Source: Hormiphora californensis (lineage: Eukaryota > Animalia > Ctenophora). From it: 64,000 nt of DNA. Both the position numbers and the translations under genes were made by a program. This document shows, one piece after another, positions 13,427-54,300 of the stretch; position 1 is the first letter of the stretch; the number at the start of each line of letters is the position of its first letter. The notes under the pieces are model-generated. The model did no database searches. It saw only the letters and a list, made by a program, of their open reading frames with translations, and was not told where the DNA came from. The stretch spans positions 1,736,001-1,800,000 of the forward strand of contig CM035358.1 of assembly GCA_020137815.1 (NCBI GenBank). The letters are read 5' to 3'.

Positions 13427-13914
13427 TGGAAATATTATATTTAATTTGATATGTGTACCAAGACTGGAAGACTTGTGTGTGTTGATTTTATTGTTACTTT
13501 ATTATTTGCAGCCGCTCAACTCCTTTACCATACCCCAAATAAAGTATTTTGAATTTGATCCATTTCTTTAGCTGGTACTGATCAGGAAAACTATTTTGAG
13601 TTGTTGGATTCCATAGACCCTCGGGGCTCAGGGCAAAGGGGACAAGTTATGTGAGAGGCATTGAAAAGGAAATATACTCTCTCCTATCGACCTCTCACTA
13701 TGCCATGAGTGTGTTCGACCTGATTTGTCGAGCAATATCTGCCATTCACATCCGGCTCCCAGAGACAGGGAGAACAGGAAAACGGTGGGTGGAACAGTAC
13801 ACAGATCTGCCATCTCCCCCTTGTTGTTCTCCTACTTGTTGGACAGAGATTCACATAGACGTGACACGCGGTGGTGTAGGGGTATGGTTGTTGGCGCGAT
13901 CAATACGCGCGCAT

Positions 13915-15357
13915 GGCAATTTCTGATTTGCCGCATACGGCGTCTAGACGGCGTCGCAACGCCGTCTAGACGGCGTCTAGACGGTATACCGTCTGGACGG
14001 GTTTCGGTGAAATCAGCTAAAAACGGTACCGAAATTGCTTGAGACGGGTTATAGACGGTATCAGACGGTCTCTAGACGGGTTATAGACGGTATCAGACGG
14101 TGTTGCGACGGTATCAGACGGTCTCTAGACGGTGTCTAGACGGTACCGTCCCGGCGTCTGGACGGCGTCTGGACGGTGTCTAGACGGTATCCGTCCGAAA
14201 TTGAGACGGCACGTCTGAAAATTGTATCAGACGTTGAGACGGACTTTTAGAACTCCGTCTGTATTTCAGACGGAGTTTTAAAAGTACGTCTCAACGCAGT
14301 CTAAAGGAAAATCGATGAAAGTACCGTCTAGACAACGTCTCAACTGAAACCGGTCAACATACCGTCTAAACAACGTCTAGACAACGTCTAAACAGAATCT
14401 CGCGATTCAGTTTCAAATACCGTCTAGACAACTTCTCCAGCAATTTCGATAAGAATACCGTCTAAACAACGTCTAGACAACGTCTCAAATAATGATGTCT
14501 AGACTCGACCGTTTTCGAAGACCATTCTGGATTACCCATGCCAGTTGGAATTAGTGGTAGATGTGTGCCTATTGAATGAAAATTACACATGTGTTTATTT
14601 GAAGTTGGGTACGAAAATTACCGGGAGGATAACCCCTTTTCCGTCCCCGAGCATCGCGGTACGACTGTGCTGGTTAAACACATGTGTAATTTTCATTCAA
14701 TAGGCACACATCTACCACTAATTCCAACTGGCATGGGTAATCCAGAATGGTCTTCGAAAACGGTCGAGTCTAGACATCATTATTTGAGACGTTGTCTAGA
14801 CGTTGTTTAGACGGTATTCTTATCGAAATTGCTGGAGAAGTTGTCTAGACGGTATTTGAAACTGAATCGCGAGATTCTGTTTAGACGTTGTCTAGACGTT
14901 GTTTAGACGGTATGTTGACCGGTTTCAGTTGAGACGTTGTCTAGACGGTACTTTCATCGATTTTCCTTTAGACTGCGTTGAGACGTACTTTTAAAACTCC
15001 GTCTGAAATACAGACGGAGTTCTAAAAGTCCGTCTCAACGTCTGATACAATTTTCAGACGTGCCGTCTCAATTTCGGACGGATACCGTCTAGACACCGTC
15101 CAGACGCCGTCCAGACGCCGGGACGGTACCGTCTAGACACCGTCTAGAGACCGTCTGATACCGTCGCAACACCGTCTGATACCGTCTATAACCCGTCTAG
15201 AGACCGTCTGATACCGTCTATAACCCGTCTCAAGCAATTTCGGTACCGTTTTTAGCTGATTTCACCGAAACCCGTCCAGACGGTATACCGTCTAGACGCC
15301 GTCTAGACGGCGTTGCGACGCCGTCTAGACGCCGTATGCGGCAAATCAGAAATTGCC
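13915..15357. mobile_element. Foldback Mutator-like element: 683-bp inverted arms, 77-bp spacer, 9-bp TSD
   Basis: TSD CGCGCGCAT at 13906-13914 and 15358-15366; arms 13915-14597 and 14675-15357; many GTCTAGAC/AGACGG motifs. Confidence 0.88.
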
Positions 15358-15694
15358 CGCGCGCATCCCAGTCAGGCAAAATGTGATGAATTGCCTGGGA
15401 AGTCGCTTTGGATGAAGTCAGTCTCACCGGCTACCGAATTCGGAGTTGGTGCCAAATTCCCTGAACAGTCACAGCTTATCAGTTAAACTCGGAGTTTCTG
15501 TATTTCAAGTACTGAATCAGATACAACAACACAAAGAAAAAAACCTGCCCTTGCATATCAACATAGTCTTTTATCCAGTCAATCAGTTTCTATCGTCTCA
15601 CTGGGACATTACGGCCATGATTTTCTACTGGAACTTAGAGCGTTCCATCATTTTATTCCGGGTTGAACGTTTTGGGGGTTGTTGGGATGGTATA

Positions 15695-31917: not shown

Positions 31918-32169
31918 AGGAGGGTTTACAATCTGATCTTTTGAAGGTTACAGAATGGGCCAAGATAAACAATATGGTGCTACATGATCAGAAATTTCAA
32001 CTCCTGAGTTACAGACTGAACAAGTCGGCAATCTACAAGGAATTCCCTTTTTCAGTTGACATATGTTCGTATACCACAAAATCTGGAGTACAACTGTTTC
32101 CTGAAGCTGATGTCCGTGACTTGGGTGTCCAGATGTCCTCGGATGGTTCTTGGTCTAAGCACATTGCCA
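31918..32169 (+). pseudogene. 252-bp internal RT fragment of the LINE family present at 35987-48240
   Basis: Essentially identical to 43828-44015 joined to ~47451-47514. Confidence 0.92.
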
Positions 32170-32649
32170 TTTCTTGAATATCGAGTTCCCGAAGAATAAA
32201 TGTGTCGATTACTGTGTCCCGCTAAAACGAGTGTCCGTAAGGAACGTTTCATTCACTGAGTACCTAGACGAGCAGCCCAACAGTTCACTAAGACTAAAAG
32301 GCCGCGGCCACAGCCCACAGTCCACACACCTGGGGGTACGAACGAAAAATCTAATGAAGCTGCTCGAATACATGGGCTCAGGGTAGTCGCCAGCTGTATG
32401 AACAGCCTCAAGGAGATGCTAACTGTAACATGTGGCAGTGCACTGCACACTGCCAAAAATGAAAAAAGTACCCTGCACTAAAACGGCTCTAACCGCCAAA
32501 CCACTCAACCGTTTAGCTAATTCAAAGTTAATCTGATAGGAAATGTCAAGCCCTAACCCCAACCCCAATCCCAGCCCTATAACCCTAAAAACAGAGAGTG
32601 CTGACACTCCAAACACCGAGACTTTAACGCTGCCAGAAAGGTTGGCAAA

Positions 32650-33183
32650 CGCGGGATAAGGCAGCGCTTTTCAACCAGAAAGGCTCCGCGCCAATTTTTT
32701 TGACAGACACGATCCAGGCCGACCGCGACGCGACGACGCGAGTTTATGAAAATTTATGCGCTGCATGTCGCGAATTTAAAGTGCGATTTTTAATAATGCG
32801 AACCGGGGGCGCGCATTAATAATAACATAATTCCATTTGCGCGTGCTAAATCCGGTTCCTGATAAGCTAGCGACTTTTTCTTGGTGCCATTGGAAAGATA
32901 AAAATTTCATCTTTCCAACGCAACCAGGATCAAGTCTCTATCTCATCAGGAACCGGAGATATGACCAATTAACCAATTGTGTGCGCGGCGGCCTGTCGCT
33001 TAAATAAAAAATTCGACTATACGCGGCGATATTTTGTGCAAAGCGATTAATTTTGAACGCGCATTCGCTTCAGCGCGCGCAGCACGCTTTGCTTTGGCAG
33101 AAAAAAGTTCGTTCACAAACTTCAGAAATTTGAGAACAACTCAGTGCACTGAAAAGCGTTGAAAAGCGCTGCCTTATCCCGCG
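32650..33183. mobile_element. Non-autonomous DNA transposon-like element with ~26-bp inverted ends and an internal palindrome
   Basis: CGCGGGATAAGGCAGCGCTTTTCAAC / GTTGAAAAGCGCTGCCTTATCCCGCG; internal TCCGGTTCCTGAT...ATCAGGAACCGGA; TSD not resolved. Confidence 0.55.
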
Positions 33184-33453
33184 CCAGCAGCATTTGCCAA
33201 CTCTCCAGAGCACACTTGTCTGAAAAACACTGCTTTATCTCGCGCTGCTGCTGTAGCATATGCCAACGCATTCGTTAGAGGTGGCAAAACCGGATGCCTG
33301 GGACTCCCGCCGTGGGAGCAGGGAGAGGATTTGGCATTTGCTTGGAGCAGAGCCCCCTGAAAGTCGGATAGGGGGCTAAGATTTTGTCGAAATTAGCTGA
33401 AGACTTCGTCTTTTTCGCCCAAAATTTTCTGAGCAGCCCGGATCGGGCTACAC

Positions 33454-33495
33454 GTTTCAAACTTTTCAACACTACTTTAAACAAATTAATTTGAG
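33454..33495 (+). other. 42-nt spliced-leader-like sequence heading LINE 1
   Basis: GTTTCAAACTTTTCAACACTACTTTAAACAAATTAATTTGAG, identical to 35987-36028; 45 nt before the ORF ATG; matches my recollection of the ctenophore SL exon. Confidence 0.8.
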
Positions 33496-33540
33496 GCGCG
33501 CGCCCGTGCGTTTTCGAATATCCCTCTGTAGGCTCTAGCC

Positions 33541-35448
33541 ATGCCAGATATGACAAATATGGCTACACCTACTGATGACAAAAGTGATGGCAATGCCCTT
33601 GCCGTTGGAAATCTTGTAAACGCAGCAGATCCCCTTACCAAAAAGATCCTGTCTGCCTACCGCCATGATGTGGATTACACCAAGAATCTAGACATCATCC
33701 GCACATTCAACTGTGCTCACCTGGAAGCCGCTGCATCGTTTTTCGGTGCATCCCCCGGCTCACATGCAGATAAAACTAAGCGGTACCAGAACCGCACTAC
33801 ACTAGCCGACTACATCATCATTCAGCTGGAAAGTCATTTTCCTTGTGACTGTGAGGGCTGTGGCGAAGGGTATGCAGTTAAACCAGGTGAATCTCCAGGA
33901 GATGTACCTGCCAGAATTTTACGTGACTGCCGATCATCGCTGTCATACCCCCTATCCATCTTATGGGCCAAATCGTTTGATTCTGGCATTGTACCACCCT
34001 GTCTGAAACTTCAGTACATTGCACCCCTCTACAAAAAGGGTCCTAAAATGAAAGCTGAAAATTACCGCCCGATCTCCCTCACCAGTCACATTGCCAAGAC
34101 ATTTGAACGGGTTGTAAGATCTCAAATGGTGTCATACTTTGAATCAGAGAACTTGTTTAACGAGTCTCAGCATGGGTTTAGAAGCAAGAGGAGCTGCTTA
34201 TCCCAACTCACTCGTCACATTGACAATATTCTGAACAATCTCAACGACCTTCTTGAAGTGGATGTAATCTACTTGGACTTCGAGAAGGCGTTTGATAAAG
34301 TTGACATCGGTATACTTCTCGAAAAGCTGCAGAGATATGGAGTTAAGGGCAAACTCCTTGAATGGATCCGCAGCTTCCTACTAGACCGGAAACAAACGGT
34401 CTTAGTCGACGGCGTAGCGTCTTCTTTTGCAGAAGTCAGAAGTGGGGTCCCACAAGGGACTGTTCTCGGTCCACTTTTATTTCTGATTTATGTAATTGAC
34501 CTGGAATCCGTAATCAAACACGGTTCTTCTTTGTCGTTCGCTGATGACACTAAAATCTTCTCTGCTATCCGTACTATGGTTGACAAATTGAACCTACAGG
34601 AGGATCTGAACAGTGTGATAACCTGGGCTGACGCTAACAATATGTCCTTGCACCAGTCAAAGTTCGAGGTCATGAATTTCACCCTGAATCACACCAGTTC
34701 GTTTAGAGAAGTACCGTTCAGTGCTGAGAACTATTCCTATCAACTGTCTGATGGGAGGTTCATCGATCCAACAGACACTGTCCGAGACTTAGGTGTTCTA
34801 CTCTCGAGTGATGGTCAATGGTCGGCCCAAATATCTCGAGTTGTTACCACGGCTAGTCGGGTTGCTGGATGGACGTTAAGTGCATTTAGATCCAGAACTC
34901 GCCGCACCATGATGACTCTTTACAAGTCACTGGTGCGTCCCCATCTTGACTACTGTTGCACACTGTGGTCACCTTCCAAAAATGGGGATATCAGTCGTGT
35001 TGAGGATATTCAACGATCGTACACCCGTAAGATCGTTGGTCTCAAGGGGCTGAACTACTGGCAACGTCTTCAAACCCTGGGACTTTTGTCGCTTCAGCGC
35101 CGACGAGAGAGGTACACTATGATTCTTGTGTGGAAAGTGTACAACAATGAGATACCCAACAGTACTGACATGTGTTTCGTCGACAGTCACCGCTCTGGCC
35201 CTAGAGCTGTCGTCCCTCGATACTCGTACGAGGCTCAACGATCTATCTTGTCGCTATATGAACAATCATTTGCGGTACTGGGGGCAAGGTTGTGGAACAC
35301 TTTGCCTCGATCTGTAAAGGAGGCCCCAACTCTTTATCAGTTCAAATCTCAGCTAGGTAGTTTCCTCTCTACCATTCCGGATACACCCCCCATCAGCGGT
35401 TATCCTGCTCAAGCAAACAGCAACTCAATACTAGAGTGGTGTCCATGA
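33541..35448 (+). CDS. CR1-group LINE ORF: ORF1 N-terminus fused in frame to reverse transcriptase, endonuclease absent
   Basis: RT motifs NYRPISLTS, QHGFR, YLDFEKAFDKV, GVPQGTVLGPLLF, FADD, RDLGV, LVRPHLDYC. First ~118 aa align with ORF1 at 36060 (LEAAASFFG/LEEAALFFG, LESHFPCDCEGC/IESLFPQFCEAC). Confidence 0.9.
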   Translation: MPDMTNMATPTDDKSDGNALAVGNLVNAADPLTKKILSAYRHDVDYTKNLDIIRTFNCAHLEAAASFFGASPGSHADKTKRYQNRTTLADYIIIQLESHFPCDCEGCGEGYAVKPGESPGDVPARILRDCRSSLSYPLSILWAKSFDSGIVPPCLKLQYIAPLYKKGPKMKAENYRPISLTSHIAKTFERVVRSQMVSYFESENLFNESQHGFRSKRSCLSQLTRHIDNILNNLNDLLEVDVIYLDFEKAFDKVDIGILLEKLQRYGVKGKLLEWIRSFLLDRKQTVLVDGVASSFAEVRSGVPQGTVLGPLLFLIYVIDLESVIKHGSSLSFADDTKIFSAIRTMVDKLNLQEDLNSVITWADANNMSLHQSKFEVMNFTLNHTSSFREVPFSAENYSYQLSDGRFIDPTDTVRDLGVLLSSDGQWSAQISRVVTTASRVAGWTLSAFRSRTRRTMMTLYKSLVRPHLDYCCTLWSPSKNGDISRVEDIQRSYTRKIVGLKGLNYWQRLQTLGLLSLQRRRERYTMILVWKVYNNEIPNSTDMCFVDSHRSGPRAVVPRYSYEAQRSILSLYEQSFAVLGARLWNTLPRSVKEAPTLYQFKSQLGSFLSTIPDTPPISGYPAQANSNSILEWCP

Positions 35449-35986
35449 TGCGTGTTAGTGTGTTATGTGTCGCTGTTGCTGTGAGTGTACTGAGTATTGA
35501 CTCTTTTTAGGAGGTTTATCTTTTTAAATATCCTGTGTGTTACGCAAATTTATGAATTTGATAATTTGATTTTAAGACCAGATCCATTTAAATGAACAAT
35601 GCTAACTCTCGTACGCAGCAATCTCTAATTCCTGCCTCATGATGAAGACTTCAAATTTGGAGGACAATATTGACAGTGGCAAGTTATTGTAACCAGAATT
35701 AATAAATAAACAAATGAAATTTGGAGGTTAGGAAGACTTTCGAAGTTTTGGTAGTTGAGATCCTGTAAAACCTTGTTTTACTTGAAAAACTAGAGGTTAG
35801 GAAGACCGAAGAAATTGACATGTTCTTGATTCTTTTTCTTCCAAACCTCCGATTTATCAAATCTTATCAGGGAGTGGAGGCTGGAGCAGGGAGCTATGAC
35901 ATCAAGATGTCACGTTGTGACTAATGTCCACTACTCTTTCACAAGCACACTAATTATAATTCGATATCCGGTCACTCTACCGTACA

Positions 35987-36028
35987 GTTTCAAACTTTTC
36001 AACACTACTTTAAACAAATTAATTTGAG
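35987..36028 (+). other. 42-nt spliced-leader-like sequence heading LINE 2
   Basis: Identical to 33454-33495; 31 nt upstream of the ORF1 ATG; flanks unrelated to those of the first copy. Confidence 0.8.
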
Positions 36029-36059
36029 CCAAATGTCTGCCTGACCACCCCGGAAGACG

Positions 36060-37277
36060 ATGCCGGAAATGTCAAACGAGATACTAGCGAAACAGAAAGC
36101 AGTGCTGTCGGAGCTATGTGATGACCCCGACTGTAGTGACGAGGTGAAACGGATCGTGAAGGCCTACAGTCCTACAGCTAAAAGGTACCAGACCAATCTC
36201 AAGGCACTTGATCGTTTTACGGACATTGTTTTGGAGGAGGCTGCGCTTTTCTTTGGGGGGAAACCCCGTACTGATGACGGAAAGGAAAAACGGTACCGGG
36301 ACAAAGCCAGTCTCATCGACTGGTTGATAATGGCTATTGAAAGTCTATTTCCGCAATTTTGTGAGGCATGCGAGAAAGACTATGTGATCAAAAGGTGTGA
36401 GAAATCCAGGTTCAATTGTGGAAGTTGTGGGGCAGGGAGCCATAATTGCACCCTAATCCAGGAGCAACCGCTGTGCTCTATTCCAGGTTTCAAGTGGATT
36501 TGTCACATGTGTTGCAAGAAACACACACTGGAAAAGTTTGTGGGTTCCAGTGGGGAGTTTGCAAGCCCTCCCAAGAGTGCAGTAAGTGAGGCTTCGGATG
36601 ACGCCCTAAGGAGGAGGTTCAGCTTCATGTCAGAGGTTGGAGACACCAAACCAGAACACCAGCAGAAGCCACCCGGTCAGAAATTCAACAGTGTGGAGGA
36701 GGCTGACGAGGGCAAGAAGAAAGACGATGATAAGCCGATCCCGGTGTGCCAACACTACCTACAAAATCGGTGCAAGTACGGCCGCTACGGAACGAAGAAG
36801 ATCGACGGAGTTTCATGCCAGAAGTCACATCCCCCAATGTGCCGGAGATACTGCGCCCATGGGTCCATGAAGAAATACGGCTGTCAGCTGGGGAAAGAGT
36901 GTCGATACTACCATCCACCTATCTGCCGCTCTTCCCAGTTCAGGCACGAATGCCTCAAGAAGGACTGTCGTTTTCAGCATCTCAAGAACACCCGACGAGT
37001 TGCAGTGGACGAGACTCTCAATCTCAATCGGAACGGAACCCTGTCTTTTGGTGTCGGAAGGGCTGAGACGAACTATGCTAGGGATACGGAGATACCACGA
37101 TCCCAAAATCCGAGTGGTAGCTCCAATGACACCCGTGAACCACCCCGATTTGATGAGGATTCTTTTTTAGAGAGACTGTTCGGGAGAATGGAAGTGAGAA
37201 TGAAACAGATGCTAGACAAGAGGTTCGAGAGTATAGAGACGATACGCCCGACTCTAAGTCAATGGAGAGATCGTTAG
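36060..37277 (+). CDS. LINE ORF1 with PHD finger and three CCCH-type zinc fingers
   Basis: CEAC..CGSC..SHNC..WICHMC (C4HC3); CQHYLQNRC..C..H, CRRYC..C..C..H, CRSS..C..C..H. Confidence 0.85.
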   Translation: MPEMSNEILAKQKAVLSELCDDPDCSDEVKRIVKAYSPTAKRYQTNLKALDRFTDIVLEEAALFFGGKPRTDDGKEKRYRDKASLIDWLIMAIESLFPQFCEACEKDYVIKRCEKSRFNCGSCGAGSHNCTLIQEQPLCSIPGFKWICHMCCKKHTLEKFVGSSGEFASPPKSAVSEASDDALRRRFSFMSEVGDTKPEHQQKPPGQKFNSVEEADEGKKKDDDKPIPVCQHYLQNRCKYGRYGTKKIDGVSCQKSHPPMCRRYCAHGSMKKYGCQLGKECRYYHPPICRSSQFRHECLKKDCRFQHLKNTRRVAVDETLNLNRNGTLSFGVGRAETNYARDTEIPRSQNPSGSSNDTREPPRFDEDSFLERLFGRMEVRMKQMLDKRFESIETIRPTLSQWRDR

Positions 37278-38619
37278 GGACTGTTTCTACTACGAGTAAC
37301 ATATTACTGCTTAATGCAAGGAGTCTAAGTCCGGCAGGTGATACGTGCTGGAAACTCGGTCTTATTAGAGATTATATAAGAAATGAGAAAACTCCTACAG
37401 TAGCCATTGCAGTTACTGAAACCTGGTTTAAAGGGTATCACTCAGATGCCCAGGTTGAGATACCGGGATATAATGTTTTTAGGAGTGACAGAGTGAGTAG
37501 AGTCGGTGGAGGCTGTGCTCTGTATGTTCACTCGTCGCTGGCTGTTTCTGATAGTACATGTTTTGCTAGTGCGTTTAACAATATGAAAGCTGTCTATGTT
37601 GGCCAGGTTAACACCATATTTGCTGCTGTTTATCGTTCAGAGTCGAGTGTTTTGGACTTTCAGAGACTAATGAACACCTTACAGACATTTATCGATAAGT
37701 ACAGTGAGAGCGGGTTACCAGAAGTGGTATTATCGGGTGATTTTAATCTCCCACTCTTTAATTGGGTTGACGGGTCATCAGTCCCAGTTGATCAGCCTAA
37801 CTACAATGTTGTATCGGACTTTATGGACACTAATTTTCTATCCCAGGTTGTAGAGGGCCCTACCAGGGGCAACAATACGTTAGATCTCGTGTTCACCAAC
37901 AGACCGGACTACTTCAGCGATATTTCCATTACAGATGAGGGTGTATCAGATCATCTGTGGGTATCATGTCACCTCACCTTCAACCCTCTCGGTCCAGTAA
38001 GTCTATTTCTGCCTGGCAAACTGGAAGGTTATCGGCAACTGGATCTCCATTCAGCGGACTTTGTGAGTATTGATGCTGACCTTGCAGCTACTGATTGGGA
38101 CAAACTGCTTGTTGAGTGTGAGGATCTGGGTGATGAGGATGGCTCATTGTTTGTGGAAGCTGTTCGAGATAGAGTGTTCAAGGTGGTTAAGTCACATTGC
38201 CGAGTGAAGAAAATGCGAAAGGACTTTGTAGACAAGGAGCTCAGGCATTTGACTAGCAGGAGGCGTAAACTTGATAAACGTAAGAACGATTCAGTAAAGT
38301 GGAAATCGGTGATGGATTGTTTAATTGGGAAAATCAAATCCCATCTGATATCAAGGGACAAGAAAGTGGAGAGGAAGGCTGTGGGTGCTATCAAGGTAAA
38401 CCCCAAGTACTTTTATACTCACGTTAAAAAGAACTCCAAGGTTAAATCATCAGTTGCCCCCCTTGAGCGTGCGGATGGTTCCTTAACTGTGGACCCCCTG
38501 GAGAAGGCTAACCTACTACAACACCAGTTTGCTAGCGTCTTCAGCAATCCGGCGGCTATTGATCCCTCTGTGGCAGCGGGTAACATTGAGGATCAGTGCG
38601 TGGATCCTGGGCAGGCAGC
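37262..38619 (+). pseudogene. LINE ORF2 N-terminal part: apurinic-like endonuclease, truncated by deletion and LTR insertion
   Basis: LLNARS, IAVTETW, GGGCALYV, GDFN, PTRGNNTLDLVF, SDH motifs; overlaps the ORF1 stop by 16 nt. Confidence 0.9.
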
Positions 38620-40110
38620 TGTGGGATATGTGAGGTACCCATGTTACCCCAGTGCCTCTACCTTCCTTATGATTCTTAGAGTCCCCTTTGCAACATCTAT
38701 CTCTGGGGCAATATTATGGTAGCGACTGGTAGTTTGTGTTCTCAGGAAAGAACAAGTGTGAAGAAGCCAGGTAGCGAAGTCGCACTGGTTTAGTTAGTCT
38801 GGCTTGTAACTATTCCACCTGTCAAGTAGAGAGAACCCTACTATTAGTTTATTTGAGTAAACCGTTACTGTTGAGTTTCGGAGACGCAGAGACGCATGGT
38901 AGAGCCTGGCCCGAGATAGGAAAAATGAGCTGGTCTAGCCTGCCGGTCGTTGACAGTTAGCGGCAGCTGTCGGCACGGCAGAGCCGGAAAACTTTGGACC
39001 AGGTGAAGCACGGTTCCAAGCTTGGTAGACTAGACAGTCACGTGGTGTTGTAAATATTAACCTCCGGAGTATATAAAGAGCGAGCAAATATGGTAAAAGT
39101 GTGGCTTGTGGCTTGTGGCTTGTGAGTGGGACGCCCCTAGTATCTCTTTTGTGTTGTATCCGATTCTCCGTACGTTGATATTCACACCGTGGTGAACCTT
39201 GTTGTTTTACTGTCTATGTGCATGTGCCCTAAAACAACCCCTTCATCTGGCAGAACACCCTACACCTACAGCCCGCGAACCCACAACCTGAGCTCCTACT
39301 AGGGCACCCCCCTGTCACAGTCTCACTCCCAAGAAGTACACAATCGCTCAACTGGTGACCTTGATGGGACCCCACAAAACTGCTGATGATGTGCCTCTTC
39401 CGGCCCCCGAGAATCTGAGAACCCGGCCAAGACAAGACCATGAGGAGGATGATGATGTTGAACATGCCCTGATGTTGTTCCAAGAGGAGGACGAGGCGAA
39501 AGATCAAGAATGTAACATCAACCTGCTAAGTGGAGATGTAGCTGACCAAGGAGTGGTGACTACTGACTGGTGAGAGAAAGAGCGGACACTCCATTAGCTG
39601 TTCCAGAGCCGCGGTATAACATCAGGCCCCGACACCAGCAAGAGAGGCGATAGCTTTGGGGGTGCGTGAGGGTTATAACAAATCCAACTCCAATTAACTG
39701 CAGAACGATTGGTGTTGGAAATTGAGCCCCTAGCAAGGAGGATTTGGTGTCTTATATGACGTCTTGCTTAGGAGATTACCTTGGTTACTGGAGAGACTCG
39801 AGGCGACCGGAGGTTGAAGCCGTTCTTCATTCTAAACGGGCATGTGCACGGGAGGAATGATTGAATTTGGACCGGACACCTACATCGATCCAGATGTGCC
39901 GTCGGACAATGATGATGGGCATGTGCCCAAGGGGGATAGTATTCAGGGCGGAGGCATCTTACTGGAAACTGAGGAAGGAATCTCTCCTCAAGATTGATAA
40001 CACCTAATTCACCAACGAGCTAAGTCAAGCCTTGTCTGACTCTATTGAACAATTATTCTTTATGGGTTGCAAAGCAAATGTGAAAATGGGATGTGTGTAG
40101 GGTTTTGGAA

Positions 40111-40778
40111 TATATGAGGCATAAACTCTGGCCACTGGCACGTTATTTCAGATACCTTTCTCCCAGCGCGCCGCTGGGAGAAGGTAGCTGTAGTTTATCC
40201 GCCAGTGGCGGATAAACTGGTTTAAATCACGACGACGATCCCGAGGCGGAGCCGAGGGAGAGGCGGAGGGGTTTAAACCAATAACGTGCCATTGGTCAGA
40301 GTTTATGGGTTATATACCCTGCTTTAGTTGTTTGTTTCAAGTATTACACACTAACAAGAGAGAAAACACTAATCAAAACACACAAAGAGAACTGAGAAAC
40401 AGTCAAAAACATCTCTCAATTGAGTGTATATTGTTTGGTAACAGTTACTAAGGAGAGAGAGAAAGAAATAACAAGATATAATGGGGCATGCCAGACATAA
40501 CACAGAGGAATTGAGATAGTGAAACAAAAGGGGAGATAAAGAGAGAGTAATTGGCGGAATGTGTTGTTTCTTTCTCTCCAATTTAGTGTGTAACTCTTCC
40601 AAACAGTGTTCCCTCTGTATTTCAGTAAGAACTGATCATTTACACACACTTTGAATGTAACATAGGAGTTAAAAATAAATAACCTGCCAGTGGGAAATAA
40701 TCTGCCGCTGGACTGGCTGGTTATCGAGAGCGCGCTAGTGGGACTGGCGCATTATTTAAGTTAGCAGGGTATATATTA
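40111..40778. mobile_element. Hairpin-rich non-autonomous element (Crypton-like architecture) inside the LTR element
   Basis: IR ATAAACTCTGGCCACTGGCACGTTATT / AATAACGTGCCATTGGTCAGAGTTTAT enclosing three hairpins, including CCGAGGCGGAGCCGAGG; second IR TATATACCCTGCT / AGCAGGGTATATA. Confidence 0.45.
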
Positions 40779-42488
40779 ATATGAAACCTTGTAACGGACC
40801 GTGCTTCTACCAATTAGGCGTGGTGTAGCGACACCTGGGTGTTGAGTAGGAGAGACTTGAGCGGTCTCTGCGTCTCCCATGCTTTGTAATTTTAGGGACC
40901 GACTAAGCACTCTTTACAGTATGACGAACTGACCTATTTAGATGCGGTTTATGAAAAACAACTCCTCCCTGACTTTTCTGTGTGTGTCTGAGCATTTGAT
41001 TGCTCGGATATGTTTTCTTTATCGTTGTTCTTCATTTGTACAGGAACCGCTATAGACGACAGTTTCGATATAAAGTGTGTTTTAAGGCCCCATATATTAC
41101 ACAGTAGGTATATAGTCAATCAGTAGTCGAGATTCGTTAGATGCAGAGTTGAGATTGAGACCAAGAGATCTGAGCTGAGAGAGTGAGTATGACACATGAT
41201 CTACTGGGTGGCGTGTGGTAGCATTGCCCGAGTTTGTTCGTTTGGAAGTTGTGAGATTGCTAGCTTGTTGACAACCCGAAGTGATCATCTTCTGAGGGCA
41301 CTGCTCCACGGCATTCTTGGAGACCTTGTATAGGTTAGAGTTTGAGTCACAGTCACTGTAGAAAAGAGAGAGAGTTAGGAGAGCTTTTAGACAATAGAGA
41401 GAGTAAGAGATAGAGAGTTGAACGCATCATTAAGAGAGAAATGAACAGTGAATAGTGATAAAGTGGAAAGCATGTTGAGAGAAACCGTGTTAGTACATGA
41501 GACGTCATGTTTATTGTTTAGGCGTGAGACGTCATGAGGACTCAAGAGAGCAACTTGTGTTCAGGTAGAATTGCTCCTATCTAGGACACAATGTCTGTCA
41601 TTTTAAAGCTCGTTTCGCTTTTGAGACTCATTACCTTAATTGCGAAGCCAAGACCCAGCGTAATGAACTGTATGCTTGTAGAGCTAAGAAATGGCGGCTT
41701 GAGTCAGACCTTTCGGAGAGATTGAGCGTTGGGAGATAGAGCTAGTCGTTTAAGACCGATTTTGTATTCGGTGATATCAGTGATCTGCATCTGTACTTGT
41801 GGAGCCAGTGATTCGTGCTGCAATGCAATTGGTTTATAGCGAGCCCTAGCCGAGTCTATCAAACTCAAGTCTTCGAAAGGTTAGAGTTTAGAGAGATTTA
41901 AATTGGTGAGTTAGAGGTTCAGAGAATAGAAGAGACTAGAAGAAACTAGAAGAGAATAGAGAGCTACTGAGTGAGTTGAGTCATCGAGGATATGGGTTAT
42001 TATCTATTTAGTATCTAGGAGAATTGAGATCTGCTGAGTAAGAGTTAGGCCAACTAACAGCACTGGTGTGATTTTCTGGTACGGTCTGATCTAAGCAGTC
42101 TCACTACGTGTTTGTTGTTGGTCAGAGATATTGGCACTCGAGTTTGTGATTGAATCGACGCGACTGACGCTCTTCGGTCATAGATTGGAGTGTCAGTAGG
42201 GTTGCCCGTATGATTTTGACTAGAATTGATGCGACTGACGCTCGTCTATCCGGGATCATGCGGAGCAAAGAGAGAGTGGGAACGAGTAGTAGAGTTTTAG
42301 GAAGCAAGACTGACTGAGTAGTTATATATTGAGCTTTTATATAGTCTTAGATTAGTTTTAGAGTCTGAGTAGAGTCTGAGTAATTTGAACGAGCTGAGAG
42401 GTTCCTTGGGCCAACTGCTGGTCATGAACTCCGACATGCACCTCATACCAGTTGGCAGATGTGCTTGTGCGTGAGATCTTGAGCATGC

Positions 42489-42603
42489 AGTGAGTGAGTG
42501 AGTGAGTGAGTGAGTGAGTGAGTGAGTGAGTGAGTGAGTGAGTGAGTGAGTGAGTGAGTGAGTGAGTGAGTGAGTGAGTGAGTGAGTGAGTGAGTGAGTG
42601 AGT
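42489..42603. repeat. (TGAG)n microsatellite
   Basis: Seen directly in the sequence. Confidence 0.97.
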
Positions 42604-44059
42604 AGTCGAGTTCTCTATAGTTCTTTAGGTGTTCTGAGGTGGCTTTGATTTGCCTAGGTCAGTATGCACCTGTTATGACGTGGGTATTGGTCCTGGGGAC
42701 TTCGAAACCGCTAAAAGACGATATATTACTATTTATGAGTAGAGTTAGTTAATGAGTCAGTCTTGGGAGTAGAGCTAATATTAATTAGGAGTTACTTAAT
42801 TTTGTCACCCGAAGTAAGGGGTCACTCTTAGTCTTGTAGGAGAGGGTGAATGTGGGATATGTGAGGTACCCATGTTACCCCAGTGCCTCTACCTTCCTTA
42901 TGATTCTTAGAGTCCCCTTTGCAACATCTATCTCTGGGGCAATATTATGGTAGCGACTGGTAGTTTGTGTTCTCAGGAAAGAACAAGTGTGAAGAAGCCA
43001 GGTAGCGAAGTCGCACTGGTTTAGTTAGTCTGGCTTGTAACTATTCCACCTGTCAAGTAGAGAGAACCCTACTATTAGTTTATTTGAGTAAACCGTTACT
43101 GTTGAGTTTCGGAGACGCAGAGACGCATGGTAGAGCCTGGCCCGAGATAGGAAAAATGAGCTGGTCTAGCCTGCCGGTCGTTGACAGTTAGCGGCAGCTG
43201 TCGGCACGGCAGAGCCGGAAAACTTTGGACCAGGTGAAGCACGGTTCCAAGCTTGGTAGACTAGACAGTCACGTGGTGTTGTAAATATTAACCTCAGGAG
43301 TATATAAAGAGCGAGCAAATATGGTAAAAGTGTGGCTTGTGAGTGGGACGCCCCTAGTATCTCTTTTGTGTTGTATCCGATTCTCCGTACGTTGATATTC
43401 ACACCGTGGTGAACCTTGTTGTTTTACTGTCTATGTGCATGTGCACTGATATCTATCACTCCAAAGTCCAAGTTCACCTCGTCCGGCGGTTGTTTTAAGG
43501 GCATGTGCCCTAAAACAACCCCTTCATCTGGCAGAACACCCTACACCTACAGCCCGCGAACCCACAACCTGAGCTCCTACTAGGGCACCCCCCTGTCACA
43601 GTCTCACTCCCAAGAAGTACACAATCGCTCACAGCAGTGTGTGATGGTGGATGGGGTTAGGTCACCATGGGTGGAGGTGCTCAGCGGGGTGGCGCAGGGT
43701 AGTGTCCTGGGCCCTCTCCTCTTCCTTATTTATATACTGGACCTGGAATCTGTACTGGATGGTAGTATGTGTCTCACCTTTGCGGATGATACCAAGTTAA
43801 TGAAAGCCATAACAGATATTGTTGATCAGGAGGGTTTACAATCTGATCTTTTGAAGGTTACAGAATGGGCCAAGATAAACAATATGGTGCTACATGATCA
43901 GAAATTTCAACTCCTGAGTTACAGACTGAACAAGTCGGCAATCTACAAGGAATTCCCTTTTTCAGTTGACATATGTTCGTATACCACAAAATCTGGAGTA
44001 CAACTGTTTCCTGAATTAAAGAGAAACAACGATTTTGCAGTACTAATATTCAATTAAGA

Positions 44060-44101
44060 ACAGGAGCTTTCGACTGATCTATGTCAGACGTCTTCAGCTA
44101 T
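44060..44101 (-). ncRNA. Minimal type I hammerhead ribozyme motif
   Basis: Minus strand ATAG-CTGAAGA-c-GTCTGA-cataga-TCAGTC-GAAA-GC-TC-CTGT: CUGANGA and GAAA cores, stem II with one mismatch, palindromic AGCT stem III, 4-bp stem I. Confidence 0.7.
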
Positions 44102-44400
44102 AACAACAATGAAAATGAAAGTGTTTATGTAGTGGAGAAGAGGATATGGGATCCGGGGAGGGGAGGAGAGAGGAAGGGATGAGATCCGAGAAGGAAGATG
44201 CGATCCGAGAGGAGGGGATGGGGGAGGTGATCCAAGGGAAGGGAGAAGAGGTGATCCGAGCTGAAGAGAATTAGGAAACAGGTTTGGGAGATCTAGGTTT
44301 GATGGAGATGCCAGCAGGACGGGGTTTGAAGGAGTTAGCAATTCTGGGGAGAAGGTGAGTCCATTGGAGGTTGACAGTAGGAACTTTATCTGTTCGGTTA

Positions 44401-47340
44401 TAATACATGTGATTTGGGTAAATAATCAGGTCAACCAGGAATTTTGGGGGGGACGGCTAATTCCTTCACTAATAGTTAGTCTAAGAGGTCCTTATGCACC
44501 AAAAAAAAGTTTTAAATCTGAAGTGGTGGGGAAGACCCCTATAATTGGCCTTAATTGGCACTAACTGGATATTCACGTAACTTGGCTTAGAAATGGAGTA
44601 GAGACAAAAATAAGGACACTAAAATGTGTAGAATCATCACATTATAGGGGGTAGAGACCATTACTGAGTCGATATCTCCAATACTAATTGAGATAATTGA
44701 GTTAATTGGATAATTCATGCCGCGCATGGTTGCCGAATACAAATCCTCTTAGAATAGGAGTAGAAATGAAAATAGGGACACTAAACTGTGCAGCGTCCTC
44801 GCATTAGTGGGGGTAGACACCCATGAAAAGTTCCTATCTCAATTGGTTAATTGGATAATTGGATAATTAGATATGCGCATAGCCGTATTAGCCTATTAGA
44901 TATATTCAGCAGACCATATACGATACCCTGAGACTCTAAGAGCCTCCTACATACCCCTAGTACCCTCCTAAATACCCCTCAGACCCCATGCTAGATTCCT
45001 ATTACACTCTATTAGATGCCCCTCGAAGCTTCCTAGATAGCCCTTACAGCTCATTTGGTAACCCTTTTACCTTCCTATATACCCCTCAGACCCAGCTAGA
45101 TGCTTTTTAGATCTTCCTAGATACCCCTAAAACTCTCCAAGATACACATTAGACTATACTAGATACCTCTTAGACCCCGTTAGATACCCCTAAAATCCTT
45201 CTAGATACCCCTCAGATCTTCATATGTATAGTATCTATTAGATACCCCTAGTACCTTCCTGGGCACCCCTCAGATCTCAGACCATATAAGATACCAATCA
45301 AGCATCATTAGATACCCCTCACAGCTCTCTAGATACCTTCACAGCTCCTTAGATAGCCATTTTACCCCTCTAGATACCCATTAGACCCTGCTAGATACAT
45401 ATCAGATCTTGCTAGATACCCCTGAACGCCCCAAAGATACCCCCAGAAGCTACTAGAAACCCCCTTAGACCCCATTAGATAGATATCTGTCAGACCCTTC
45501 TAGATACCCCTCCAGCTCCTTAGATAAGCCTATTACCATCCTAGACATCCCTCCGACCCTGGGATTGATAGATACCCATTACACCCCTCAAAAGCTTCCT
45601 AGATACACCTCACAGCTTATTAGACACCCTAATAGACTCCTAGACACCCCCATACCCCTGAAACCAGCCATTAGATAGCGCTCTGAGGTCTGAGGGGTGT
45701 CTAAGAAGCTCTGAGGGGTATCTAGAAGGAACTGAGGGGTATCTGATAGTGCCTAAGGGGTATATTAGTAGAGTCGGAGAGGTATCTTGGAGGGTTTTAG
45801 AGGTATCTAGCAGGGTCTGCGTTGTGTGGCTCACACCCTTTGGGAGGGTTCAGTAGATCAAAGTCTGAGGGGTGTCTAGGAGGCTAATAGGATTCATAGG
45901 AGCTGTGAGGGGTATGAATATGAAGCTTTGAGGCTTGAGGGGCATCTAAAAGGGTGTGATGGGTATCTAGTAGACCCAGGGTCAGGTATGAAGCTCTGAA
46001 GGGTATCTAGAAGGGTCTGACGGGTATCCGACTCTACTATATACCCCTTAGACACAATCAGATACCCCTCAGACCCCAGAGGGCTATCTAGTGGACGGTT
46101 TCAGGGGCGTGGGTGTGTCTGGGAGTTTATTAGGGCATCTAAAAAGTTGTGAGGGGTATCTAGGAAGCTCTTGAGGGGATTGAGGGGTATTTAATAGGGT
46201 GTAATGGGTATCTAAGAAGCCCAGGGTCTGACGGGTGTCTTGGATGGTAATAGGCTTATCGAAGGAGCTAGAGGGGTATCTAGAAGGGTCTGACAGATAT
46301 CTATCTAATGGGGTCTAAGGGGGTATGAATCTAATAGATTCTGGGGGTATCTATCAAGATCTGATATGTATCTAGCAGGGTCTTATGGGTATCTAGAGGG
46401 GTAAAATGGCTATCTAAGGAGCTGTGAAGGTATCTAGGGAGCTGTGAGGGGTACTTAATGATGCTTGATTGGTATCTTATATGGTCTGAGATCTGAGGGG
46501 TGCCCAGGAAGGTACTAGGGGTATCTATGAAGATCTGAGGGGTATCTAGAAGGATTTTAGGGGTATCTAACGGGGTCCAAGGGGTATCTAGTAGAGTCTA
46601 ATGTATATCTTGGAGAGTTGTAGGGCCCTATAGGGGTATCTAGGAAGATCTAAAAAGCATCTAGCTGGGTCTGAGGGGTGTATAGGAAGGTAAAAGGGTT
46701 ACCCAATGAGCTGTAAGGGCTATCTAGGAAGCTTCGAGGGGCATCTAATAGAGTGTAATAGGAATCTAGCATGGGGTATTTAGGAGGGTACTAGGGGTAT
46801 GTAGGAGGCTCTTAGAGTCTCAGGGTATCGTATATGGTCTGCTGAATATATCTAATAGGCTAATACGGCTATGCGCATATCTAATTATCCAATTATCCAA
46901 TTAACCAATTGAGATAGGAACTTTTCATGGGTGTCTACCCCCACTAATGCGAGGACGCTGCACAGTTTAGTGTCCCTATTTTCATTTCTACTCCTATTCT
47001 AAGAGGATTTGTATTCGGCAACCATGCACGGCATGAATTATCCAATTAACTCAATTATCTCAATTAGTATTGGAGATATCGACTCAGTAATGGTCTCTAC
47101 CCCCTATAATGTGATGATTCTACACATTTTAGTGTCCTTATTTTTGTCTCTACTCCATTTCTAAGCCAAGTTACGTGAATATCCAGTTAGTGCCAATTAA
47201 GGCCAATTATAGGGGTCTTCCCCACCACTTCAGATTTAAAACTTTTTTTTGGTGCATAAGGACCTCTTAGACTAACTATTAGTGAAGGAATTAGCCGTCC
47301 CCCCCAAAATTCCTGGTCCTTACCCTAATCACATGCATTA
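44401..47340. mobile_element. 2.9-kb foldback DNA element with long inverted arms and TAGATACCCC-type minisatellite
   Basis: TTA|TAATACATGTGATTTGGGTAA...TTACCCTAATCACATGCATTA|TTA; removing it restores the Penelope reading frame; 3-bp TSD (Academ- or Harbinger-like). Confidence 0.82.
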
Positions 47341-48302
47341 TTAATCGCCGGATGAAGAGTGTGAATAGCCGCTTGTTCCAGTAGATTTAGACTGAGGCAG
47401 GAGGAAGAAGAGGAGAGGATAGAGGTAGAATTCCAGTCCAGTTTCCTGAAGCTGATGTCCGTGACTTGGGTGTCCAGATGTCCTCGGATGGTTCTTGGTC
47501 TAAGCACATTGCCACCATTGTGAGGAGAGCCTCTCCTATCTGGGTGGATTTTCAGTGTTTTTCGAGATCGTTCACCAGAGGTAATGTTGCAACTCTTCAA
47601 ATCACTGGTCAGACCAATTTTGGAGTATTGTTGTCTGGTCTGGGATCCGTCAAAGTCTGGGGACATCAAGTCAATTGAGAACGTCCAACGGTGTTTTACT
47701 AGAAGACTTGATGGAATGCAGAATCTCGACTATTGGGAGAGATTAAAAGTTCTCAACCTGATGTCTCTTCAACGTAGGAGACAACGTTACATATTGATAC
47801 ATGTGTGGAAGACGATCCATGGGTTTGTTCCGAATTCTGCAAATCTTGTGTTCCAACACAGTGCAAGGCTGGGTATGAGGTTAGTCCCACCAGTGTTTCC
47901 TTATCGGGCTGAGACCTGGAGAGCGAATCAGTACCATTCTTCCTTCGGACCGAGAGCTGCTCACCTGTGGAACAGGTTGCCAGCGGCCGTTAACTCTTGC
48001 GGAAGCTTAGGTCAATTCAAATCATCCCTGGGCAATTACTTGACAGGCTTTTATGACCGTCCCCCTGTCAGAGGCTATCCATCACTTCCCAATGATATTT
48101 CCCCTCAATGTGCTGTAAATGTCTGAGAGTGGCTGAGAGGTGATACGTGTTTAATTTATTTAGGTGGACCCACTAAGGGAAGGCCTGTTGTGTACACTAA
48201 AACTTTTATTGTAAACTTGTAAACTTGTAAACTGTAACTTTGTTAAACTAAATTAATAAAACATTTTAATTATTACCCATTTTAACTTTCATAGCTCAGA
48301 CC

Positions 48303-51300: not shown

Positions 51301-54300
51301 GAGAATGTCATTCAAGATAAAACTATGCAGGAGTGATTCATAAGACCCATTTCTACTATTTTAGATGATAATAGGACATAATTAATTTTTTATGCTAGCC
51401 CGAAGAATACCTTTAATATTAATACAAAACGCGGAGTTTTTACGTCAGCCGACCCGAAACCGGATTAAATTTTGCCACCCGCTGGTCTCAGGGCCTCCAA
51501 ATATGTCAAAATATGTCTGAATTGTCATTTGGGGTCATTTAGACCTTTTAATTACATGTAATTACCCTTTAATTACATGTAATTACATTTTAATTACATG
51601 TAAATACTTCCAATTACATTCCAATTACTTCAGCACCTCGAGAGCTTTCGAACGCACCCTATAACACCTTTCTACTCCTTCTAATTGCCGAGTTCTGTAT
51701 ACCCCTTATTTTGACTGTTTTTCGCGTCCTACCCCTTATGGGTTTGGGTACGGCCATCGCCGCACCCCCTATACGTCGCGGGACCTCGAGACCTTTCCAA
51801 CGAGCCATAGAACACCTCTCTACTACTTCAGGGGGCTTCAAAACTTTCACTCTAAAAATATCTATGGTTTATGGTTTATGGTTTATGGTTTACCTCGACC
51901 AAAACGCGGAGTTTTTACGTCAGCCGACCCGAAACCGGATTAAATTTGCCCACTCGCTGGTCTCAGGGCCTCCAAATATATGTCAAAATATGTCTGAATT
52001 GCCATTTGGGGTCATTTAGACCTTTTAATTACATGCAATTACCCTTTAATTACATGTAATTACATTTTAATTACATGTAATTACTTCCAATTACATTCCA
52101 ATTACTTCAGCACCTCGAGAGCTTTCGAACGCACCCTAGAACACCTTTCTACTCCTTCTAATTGCCGAGTTCTGTATACCCCTTATTTTGACTGTTTTTC
52201 GCGTCCTACCCCTTATAAGTTTGGGTATGGCCATCGCCACACCCCCTATACGTCGCGGGACCTCGAGACCTTTCCAACGAGCCATAGAACACCTCTCTAC
52301 TACTTCAGGGGGCTTCAAAACTTTCACTCTAAAAATATCTATGGTTTATGGTTTTATGGTTTACGGTTTATGGTTTTTTTTCATCTGGTATTAAGGGCCT
52401 GTCGGCTCGGCCCCGTTGTTTTAGTTTTAGGGGGGGGGGGGTGTTTTAGGGGGGGATGGGTTGAGTTTGGGTTATATTCGGGTCGGGGGGGCCTTGCCAG
52501 GCCCCGAATGGTTTATTTTTCATCTGGTATTAAGGGCCTGTCGGCTCGGCCCCGTTGTTTTAGTTTTAGGGGGGATGTTTTAGGGGGGATGGATTGAGTT
52601 TGGGTTATATTCGGGTCGGGGGGCCTTGCCAGGCCCCGAATGGTTATGGTTTTTTTTCATCTGGTATTAAGGGCCTGTCGGCTCGGCCCCGTTGTTTTAC
52701 TGTTTTAGTTTTAGGGGGGATGTTTTAGGGGGGATGGGTTGAGTTTGGATTAGATTCGGGTCGGGGGGCCTTGCCAGGCCCCGAATAATGAATGGGTATT
52801 TCTATACCTAACTGACTCTCCCAACCAGAGTTCATATGAGTCAGCAAGTGCAGGTAGCGACCAAAAAACAGGTTGCTGTCCTCGAGAACAGGCTGGATCA
52901 GGCTCTGAAGAGGTTCAACACAATTCTAGCAGATAACAAAAAGAAAAGGGAACTCATTGATCATTTGAGGCAGGAGAAGGTTATCTTTGAGAATCTGTTC
53001 AAGAAACTGGAGAAGGTTAGTGTTGCTATTTTGACAACGAATTGAAATAGTACGATAAAATTCCCTCTTTCCTAGATCTAGGGTTTTAGTTAGGGGCATG
53101 GGGCTTGAGAATGGGAAAAAAAATGGTACCAGCCAATTTCTTCACCAATGTGTCCCAAATGGTCCCCAGAAACACCAAAAAGTTTTGTCCGGCTCGGGAT
53201 GAAGGGCAGAGGGTCCATTTCCTGGTTTATATGCATGCGCATCAAGTACTGTGAGGGGGGAATTAAAAATCTTAAAAATTGGAGTTTTGGTCCCGGAAAA
53301 AGGGTCTACTCCGACCGGAAACATCGTGTTAGTGGGGGTAGAGCATGTCAAATTTATCATTAAACCATTCGCTAATGAGATAATTACATAATTAGTATAC
53401 TAATTATCGAAAAATCGTAAAAATTGGAGTTTTGGACCCGAAAATGACTCATCCCGACCGGAAACCGCGTGTTAGTGGCGGTAGAGCAGGTCAAAATTAC
53501 CCTCAAACCATTTGCTGATGAGATAATTACATAATTAGTCGACTAATTCTCGAAAATCGTAAAAATTGGAGTTTTGGACCCGGAAAATGAGCGTACCTGA
53601 TACCCCTCAGACCCTACTAGATACTCCTCTGACCCTCCCAGGAACCCCTCTGACCCTCCCAGATAACCCTCTGATCCTCCCAGATACCCCTCTGACCCTC
53701 CCAGATAGCCCTCTGACCCTCCCAGATAGCCCTCTGACCCTACTAGACACCCAAAGACCCTCCCAGATAGCCCTGTGACCCTCGCAGATACCCCTCTGAT
53801 CCTCCCAGAAAGCCCTCGGACCCTCCCAGATACCCCTAAGACCCTCCCAGATACCCCCTGATCCTACTAGATAGCCTTAGACCCTCCCAGATAGCCCGCT
53901 GACCCTCCCAGATACCCCACTGACCCTACTAAATACCCATCTGACCGTCCATATATACCCCTCTGACCCTCTGACCCAACCTGATACCCCTCTGACCCTA
54001 CCTGATACCCCTCTGACCTTATTAGATATCCTCTGACCCTCCCAGATAACCCTCTGACCCTCCCAGATAACCCTCTGACCTTCCCAGATACCCCTCTGAC
54101 CCTCCCAGATAGCCCTCTGACCCTCCCAGATACCCCACTGACCCTACTAGATACCCATCTGACCGTCCCATATACCCCTCTGACCCTCCTAGATAGCCCT
54201 CTGACCCTCCTATGATACCCCTCTGACCCTCCTAGATATCCCTCTGACCCTATTGAATACCCTAAGACCCTCCCAGATACCCCTCTGACCCTCGCAGATA

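Follow-up and report, generated by a model that had tools for sequence, protein, structure and literature searches.

LINEs must rebuild their 5' end in each cycle, and two answers to this problem are known, one being an internal promoter and the other a 5' ribozyme combined with read-through. Genes for the spliced leader (SL) are themselves the insertion sites of the RLE elements CRE, SLACS, and CZAR. The closest described counterparts of the elements considered here are dinoflagellate retrogenes with SL relics (Song et al. 2017, PMC5585692; Slamovits and Keeling 2008, as cited there), retroposed RNAs that likewise start with a genomic copy of the SL, and the passages of that paper dealing with relics propose for them the same two roles that are considered below, those of promoter and re-acceptor. 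The use of a host SL by transposable element (TE) RNA has also been described: TE transcripts are SL-trans-spliced in Hydra, where about 30% of TE Iso-Seq reads carry SL (PMC12220107), and SL genes overlap LINE/CR1 repeats in Heterodera (PMC6362198), but the relevant passages of both papers concern the RNA level only and do not report SL as the genomic 5' end of a LINE. In the ctenophore Hormiphora, the SL is found on 56% of Iso-Seq reads, and 718 genomic SL copies were counted, compared to 491 in Mnemiopsis, with section 37 of the report leaving the nature of these copies unstated (PMC8527503).

The window analysed here, a 64-kb stretch of Hormiphora californensis DNA, includes two LINEs (E1 and E2) that begin with the same 42-mer. 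The 42-mer occurs at 33454-33495 and 35987-36028 with 0 mismatches, verbatim at both positions as the earlier note had claimed, and a search of the window located neither a third copy at up to 3 mismatches nor a further partial match of at least 14 nt. By composition, the chance of a 42-mer match is about 1e-24 per site, and 0 of 100 shuffles contained any match. The identity suggested for the motif in the earlier note proved correct, and the 42-mer is the ctenophore spliced leader: the published 44-mer of Hormiphora is GA plus the 42-mer, letter for letter (comparison with PMC8527503), and the motif also begins host mRNA contigs (L001, L004, and L009) and lies in an SL RNA gene (L008). The E2 copy has an additional A at 35986, bringing it to 43 nt, and the E2 leader region is identical over 44 nt to the SL gene in L008. 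The 43-nt leader is AU-rich, with AG at positions 1-2 and 42-43 only. In agreement with the earlier note, neither copy in the window is an SL RNA gene: GCGCG and CCAAA follow the motif where the SL gene has GTAAG. The GT donor, the SL intron, and the SL upstream region are lacking at both copies, no Rfam match was found in 32000-38000 or in the whole window, and no tRNA was found in the window.

An empty allele of E1 places the leader within the inserted DNA. Contigs of X1 and X5, two samples from two studies (X1 possibly being the window's own sample), contain a joint 33454>35570 with 1 letter between, at a depth of 48.8 (side 30) in X1 and of 337.9 in X5. One X5 contig spans 33200-33454 and 35570-36011, and thereby covers 255 nt to the left and 442 nt to the right of the insertion with 0 differences. 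The empty site has no SL, and the leader therefore arrives with the element; for the same reason NeSL/CRE-type targeting is ruled out for E1, in agreement with the earlier view that this is not a NeSL/CRE/SLACS-like insertion into SL genes. Since the empty allele has the G at 33454 as well, the polymorphic insertion, from SL to 3' tail, begins 1 nt into the motif and extends over 33455..35569 on the plus strand. The inserted DNA opens with the SL, which makes up its first 41-42 nt and is neither flank nor SL-gene target, and E1 is in this respect an SL-relic retrocopy, in that the DNA left by a retroposed RNA starts with a copy of the SL. Insertion of E1 replaced one target base without creating a target-site duplication, and no target duplication of 6 nt or more was found for E1 or E2. 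The haplotype that lacks E1 also contains the E2 junction, and no empty site was found for E2.

A 3' end consisting of a short tandem repeat, in the absence of a target duplication, is a feature of the CR1 clade, and E1 ends in this way. Its SL exon (33454..33495, plus strand, of which the first base, G at 33454, also belongs to the target site) is supported by the motif match, the published SL, and the empty allele, and is followed on the same strand by a 45-nt 5' UTR (33496..33540) that has no upstream ATG and contains two YAG sites, ending at 33531 and 33538. The adjoining 635-aa ORF (33541..35448, plus strand) fuses an ORF1 N-terminus of about 118 aa in frame to a reverse transcriptase (RT; RVT_1, E=3e-30, Pfam), with no endonuclease, and the 3' UTR (35449..35569, plus strand) ends in a short AATTTGA(T) repeat. 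The fusion marks an internal deletion of this copy, which joined the ORF1 N-terminus to RT with a deletion point near 33893-33897, because contigs of X1 and X5 leave the E1 sequence at 33893/33896, and those of X9 at 33893, as members of the E1 family that run on into the missing part. P0001, a 79% relative that aligns with the E1 ORF from residue 421, has both APE and RT, whereas E1 itself has RT. Among the 120 matches to the E1 RT listed, the five organism-named ones are Mnemiopsis and Bolinopsis proteins that are 51-53% identical, relatives that by themselves make a ctenophore the very likely host; a search of viral_contigs gave 11 pattern matches, 0 of them confirmed.

Several further observations touch on E1. 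The AATTTGA repeat of the 3' tail (35554-35569) equals the 7 nt that precede the leader's last G, which may be chance or meaningful. Over the E1 family (33551-35539), X1 depth is as high in the 5' part as in the 3' part, a parity that hints at few 5'-truncated copies, contig depth being a poor measure. One X5 contig (33496>33547) joins SL to E1 ORF1 sequence via 11 other letters, and represents a relative whose UTR is different and shorter. An X1 contig (35439>35988) joins E1-family 3' sequence to an SL via 14 letters, and may be an SL-headed element that lies within another copy. Upstream of E1, at a distance of 430-600 nt, a palindromic repeat (32851-33022) resembles at 74-87% positions 1939-2127 of L007, the flank directly before the leader of that metagenome locus, and this likeness could reflect a shared target preference or chance.

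E2 is headed by the full 43 nt of the SL exon (35986..36028, plus strand), as seen from the motif match and from a family contig (36009-36450) that includes the last 20 SL bases, unbroken in two organisms. On the same strand follow a 31-nt 5' UTR (36029..36059) with a 3-codon upstream ORF (uORF) at 36033-36044, a Cys/His-rich ORF1 of 405 aa (36060..37277) that has no Pfam match and is 39% identical to the ORF1 of L007, and the 5' part of ORF2 (37262..38619), which encodes an APE-type endonuclease (Exo_endo_phos_2, E=5e-9, Pfam). ORF2 is broken by two insertions to which no strand is assigned. The LTR-like insertion (38620..43447) is bounded by repeats at 38620-39230 and 42851-43447 that are 97% identical over 611 nt, and the fold-back insertion in the RT (44016..47440) is associated with a 10-nt duplication at 44006-44015 and 47441-47450. 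An RT fragment (43632..44015, plus strand; RVT_1, E=1e-7, Pfam) and the C-terminal part of ORF2 (47441..48126, plus strand) complete the APE-type non-LTR layout of ORF1 plus an ORF2 with APE and RT, which E2 retains in pieces. The description of E1 and E2 as full-length copies consequently holds for their 5' ends and fails inside, where E1 is internally deleted and E2 interrupted. Elsewhere in the window, an uninterrupted RT fragment at 31918-32169 is identical to E2 on either side of the fold-back insertion (43828-44015 and 47441-47514), and shows the state before that insertion. Long palindromic or fold-back regions lie at 13907-15364, 44400-47341, and 53109-55855, two of the three with internal repeats of 21-nt period or similar arrays.

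The two elements are homologous mainly at the protein level, as the earlier note had suggested. In a blastn comparison of their DNA, only the SL (47 nt, 98%) and a 72-nt stretch of RT at 72% align, whereas the proteins share 39% identity over 85 aa of ORF1 and 47-50% in pieces of RT. The distance from the motif to the ORF1 ATG, measured as 45 nt in E1 and 31 nt in E2, is as previously reported, and the upstream flanks of the two elements are without likeness, again as reported. Both elements belong to families whose sequence is found at high depth in X1, with 856-1066 for the 5' bins of E1 and 610 for the E2 contig 36009-36450, compared to 42-49 for the flanks, and an E2 contig with the same start was found in organism B at a depth of 390; contig depth is not copy number. 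Immediately upstream of 35986 the flanks of diverging contigs are mixed, with nine such contigs in X1 (agreement 0.46) and seven in X9 (0.51).

To what extent the leader is found outside the window can be judged from metagenome records, where an exact-match scan with the last 41 nt of SL gave 12 matches in 11 loci: three host mRNAs, one SL-RNA/5S array, and seven LINE-like heads. The LINE-like heads make up seven of the eight non-mRNA loci, a count that covers SL-bearing LINEs only and comes from metagenome assembly, which favours multi-copy sequence. They stem from three metagenome records (record type presumed to be DNA), five of the seven from one record. The motif had 0 matches in viral_contigs and 0 in genome_contigs. 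The three mRNA-like contigs begin with the leader and represent unrelated mRNAs. L008 is a true SL RNA gene array, in which the SL is an exon with a GT donor; its two SL copies, 778 nt apart, are each followed by GTAAG, and a 5S rRNA match (E=9e-24) lies in the same locus. The array is a 778-nt repeat in which SL RNA genes of the ctenophore type and 5S rRNA genes follow each other in turn.

Five of the seven LINE-like loci have an APE or APE-RT ORF2, and these come from two deep RT lineages. L007 has the start of an APE and an ORF1 39% identical to that of E2, and L002, L003, L005, and L011 share another ORF1 type together with an APE-RT ORF2, Pfam-confirmed for L003. The APE-type domain is N-terminal to RT in ORF2 (Pfam), with no restriction-like endonuclease. 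L006 and L010 have an ORF1-like frame and no ORF2 in their short contigs, and are not proven LINEs; their ORF1-like proteins have atlas matches at 0.84-0.90 that serve as leads only, and no Pfam match above cut-off was found for the seven ORF1s scanned. L006 (1-1258) consists of SL, an ORF1-like frame with one frameshift, and a short UTR ending in a TTTCAAG repeat, and, lacking ORF2 and ending at the contig end, is possibly an ORF1-only non-autonomous element. A uORF of one to four codons (MSA, MSK, M, METH) is found within 17 nt of the leader in four of the five heads with a short UTR, those of E2, L007, L006, and L010, while none is present in E1 or in the four heads with a long UTR; such a leader-proximal uORF may tune translation of ORF1 and ORF2. 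Six of the LINE-like loci extend 7-352 bases upstream of the leader, and these bases are unlike the SL gene and unlike each other, with the SL-gene upstream region of L008 absent from all LINE loci. The earlier note had named beforehand three outcomes that would speak against its reading, namely a 42-mer missing from mRNA 5' ends and SL RNA genes, sequence shared by LINE copies upstream of the leader, and SL-gene halves around the insertions. None of the three was encountered.

Taken with E1 and E2, the metagenome loci provide nine LINE-like heads, and in all nine the junction with the LINE lies exactly at the 3' end of the SL exon, the donor position. No SL intron bases are retained save a single G in three of the nine, and a second exact 41-mer, as expected of tandem leaders, was found in none of the nine. 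The 5' ends are frayed, with AG kept in two heads, only G in four, and neither in three, so that seven of nine are without the first one or two SL bases. Downstream of the leader, identity within groups is only 36-77% over the first 100 columns. The SL itself does not vary, an invariance that, like the loss of no more than two bases, is partly built in by the choice of loci through an exact 41-mer match. The junction occupies a homologous point across families with 39-60% ORF1 identity, and the SL-headed elements comprise four ORF1 types. Their ORF2s fall into two groups, 24-33% identical to each other, that are separated with 100/100 support in an RT tree of 25 rows (five SL-headed elements and 20 of 240 database matches) without named clade references. 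From their motifs, we take the two groups to be CR1-like and L2/Crack-like, and the CR1 label of E1 and E2 is provisional, as no named CR1/L2 references occur among the 240 matches listed in the RT searches. The leader is, as anticipated, common to unrelated LINE families with different flanks.

Because the head equals exactly the exon in nine of nine cases, ending at the donor position, the RNA from which these elements were copied had very probably been spliced. Our preferred reading, which we rate at a little over an even chance, goes further, and holds that LINE RNA is SL-trans-spliced, copied to the cap, and re-accepts a fresh SL at the terminal AG in each cycle. LINE RNA would obtain the host SL by trans-splicing, as host mRNA does, and reverse transcription would proceed to within 0-2 nt of the cap. 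The new copy would then be transcribed from upstream, either by read-through from host sequence or from a start site within or ahead of the head, and the DNA copy of the SL would serve as a putative trans-splice acceptor via its terminal AG, a role that has been proposed for the AG inside retroposed SLs of dinoflagellates in the part of the study concerned with re-splicing (PMC5585692). Splicing at this AG would restore the complete capped leader in place of a frayed 5' end without creating a tandem relic, and an exact start site and a 5' ribozyme would become unnecessary for the LINE. The frayed 5' starts and the lack of tandem leaders fit this model, for which the SL-carrying TE reads of Hydra are a precedent, and the fraying counts in its favour because frayed ends would accumulate over generations without renewal.

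A number of observations run counter to renewal. GAG is in general a poor 3' splice site, and the two better YAG sites in the E1 UTR are without a direct SL joint, with 0 of the eight joints listed. Furthermore, SL pieces in an RNA-labelled run (X22; 701 records in SL bins only, 3 of 30 bins, which are not evidence on LINE expression) differ by 1-5 letters, and a mixed SL pool should yield variant heads, whereas the E2 family contig shows one leader form in two organisms. The single form is weak counter-evidence, since assemblers drop rare variants. The fixed junction does not discriminate, being equally expected if the leader is inherited. Inheritance would mean that the SL was captured once per lineage long ago and that its DNA copy is an internal initiator or promoter and translation leader, unspliced and kept by selection. 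The Ascaris SL exon is an internal promoter element, and conservation of the junction position across families, the one SL form of the E2 contig, and the lack of alternative-acceptor joints all agree with such a history. There are also precedents, in the promoter role proposed for SL relics of dinoflagellate retrogenes (relevant passages of PMC5585692) and in the inherited U1/U2 heads that some Tx1 families have according to the corresponding part of PMC4494074. However, 41 of 41 bases would have to stay frozen while the adjacent UTR drifts, and this would be needed in both ORF2 lineages and all four ORF1 types, although ascertainment weakens the point. An inherited head would also erode at its start, where seven of nine lack one or two bases, and the SL-gene upstream region of L008 is in no LINE locus. 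On balance we regard inheritance as rather unlikely, although it is the alternative to be taken most seriously.

Joining of the two RNAs at insertion, with the RT jumping from LINE RNA to SL RNA or to an SL-capped mRNA as in snRNA-L1 chimeras, is a known route for U1, U2, and U6 heads (PMC4494074, in its treatment of such chimeras). The same passages state that only a minority of copies undergo switching, and the junction speaks against template switching, since it coincides in every case with the final base of the exon, does not vary within a family, and lies ahead of an intact ORF1 start. This origin is improbable. SL exons are also known LINE targets (PMC4640811, in its section on these elements), and 718 copies are reported in the Hormiphora genome (PMC8527503), which would suit a NeSL/CRE/SLACS-like insertion directly downstream of the exon, be it in SL RNA genes or in dispersed SL copies. 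For E1 this is refuted by the empty allele, and more generally the APE-type endonuclease and the absence of an SL intron, an SL upstream region, or a 5S gene at either flank leave targeting very improbable. Least credible of all is an assembly artefact or cDNA contamination, since the E2 junction or flank is found in independent DNA-labelled runs of two samples and in a second organism, and the same layout recurs in seven loci from three metagenome records. In the broadest form of the renewal reading, several ctenophore LINE lineages would have ceded definition of the 5' end to the host, with the retrocopied SL as its own trans-splice acceptor that resets read-through transcripts to the complete capped leader in every cycle, LINE heads would make up much of the 500-700 genomic SL copies, and the arrangement would be a general convergent strategy in trans-splicing eukaryotes, a tentative extension to which we give somewhat less than an even chance.

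A head made by host trans-splicing, if true, would be a third answer to the 5'-end problem of LINEs, backed here by an empty insertion site and by two deep lineages in an animal. Even if the leader is inherited, the use of a host SL as promoter by LINEs of several lineages would be a novelty within the literature searched. That search covered full-text papers, mainly open-access ones, and found no report of LINE families that start with SL in the genome; the pertinent passages of PMC12460157, PMC7986045, and PMC4558846 likewise make no mention of SL-headed LINEs. In practical terms, the SL head is a tag for 5'-complete LINE copies, and SL-to-genome mapping in ctenophores will land on LINE heads and calls for caution.

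The dispersed SL copies of Hormiphora and Mnemiopsis, as far as the available passages describe them (PMC8527503), are the same leader in hundreds of copies; LINE heads are predicted to account for part of the 718 and 491, and this offers a testable origin for them. Among known LINEs, NeSL-1, CRE, SLACS, and CZAR also adjoin an SL exon (PMC4640811, in part), but the NeSL-1 group, as characterised there, has RLE and inserts into SL genes, whereas the elements described here have APE and an empty site without SL. Tx1-Mar LINEs and SINEU likewise begin with part of a small RNA of the host, yet the sections of Kojima (2015, PMC4494074) that concern them attribute the U1/U2 heads to template switching, while here the head is the exact exon that the host adds to its mRNAs. 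The L1Tc/ingi elements with the Pr77 promoter-ribozyme are also LINEs in a trans-splicing host, and, in the accounts of them that bear on this point, represent the opposite solution, with unspliced transcripts from an internal promoter plus ribozyme. The dinoflagellate relics, in the passages that describe them, are partial and tandem and belong to host genes, in contrast to the near-complete single SL with a fixed junction found here on retroelements of an animal. The ctenophore elements are thus of a known kind, that of SL-tagged retrocopies, and are new in that the retroelements themselves carry the SL.
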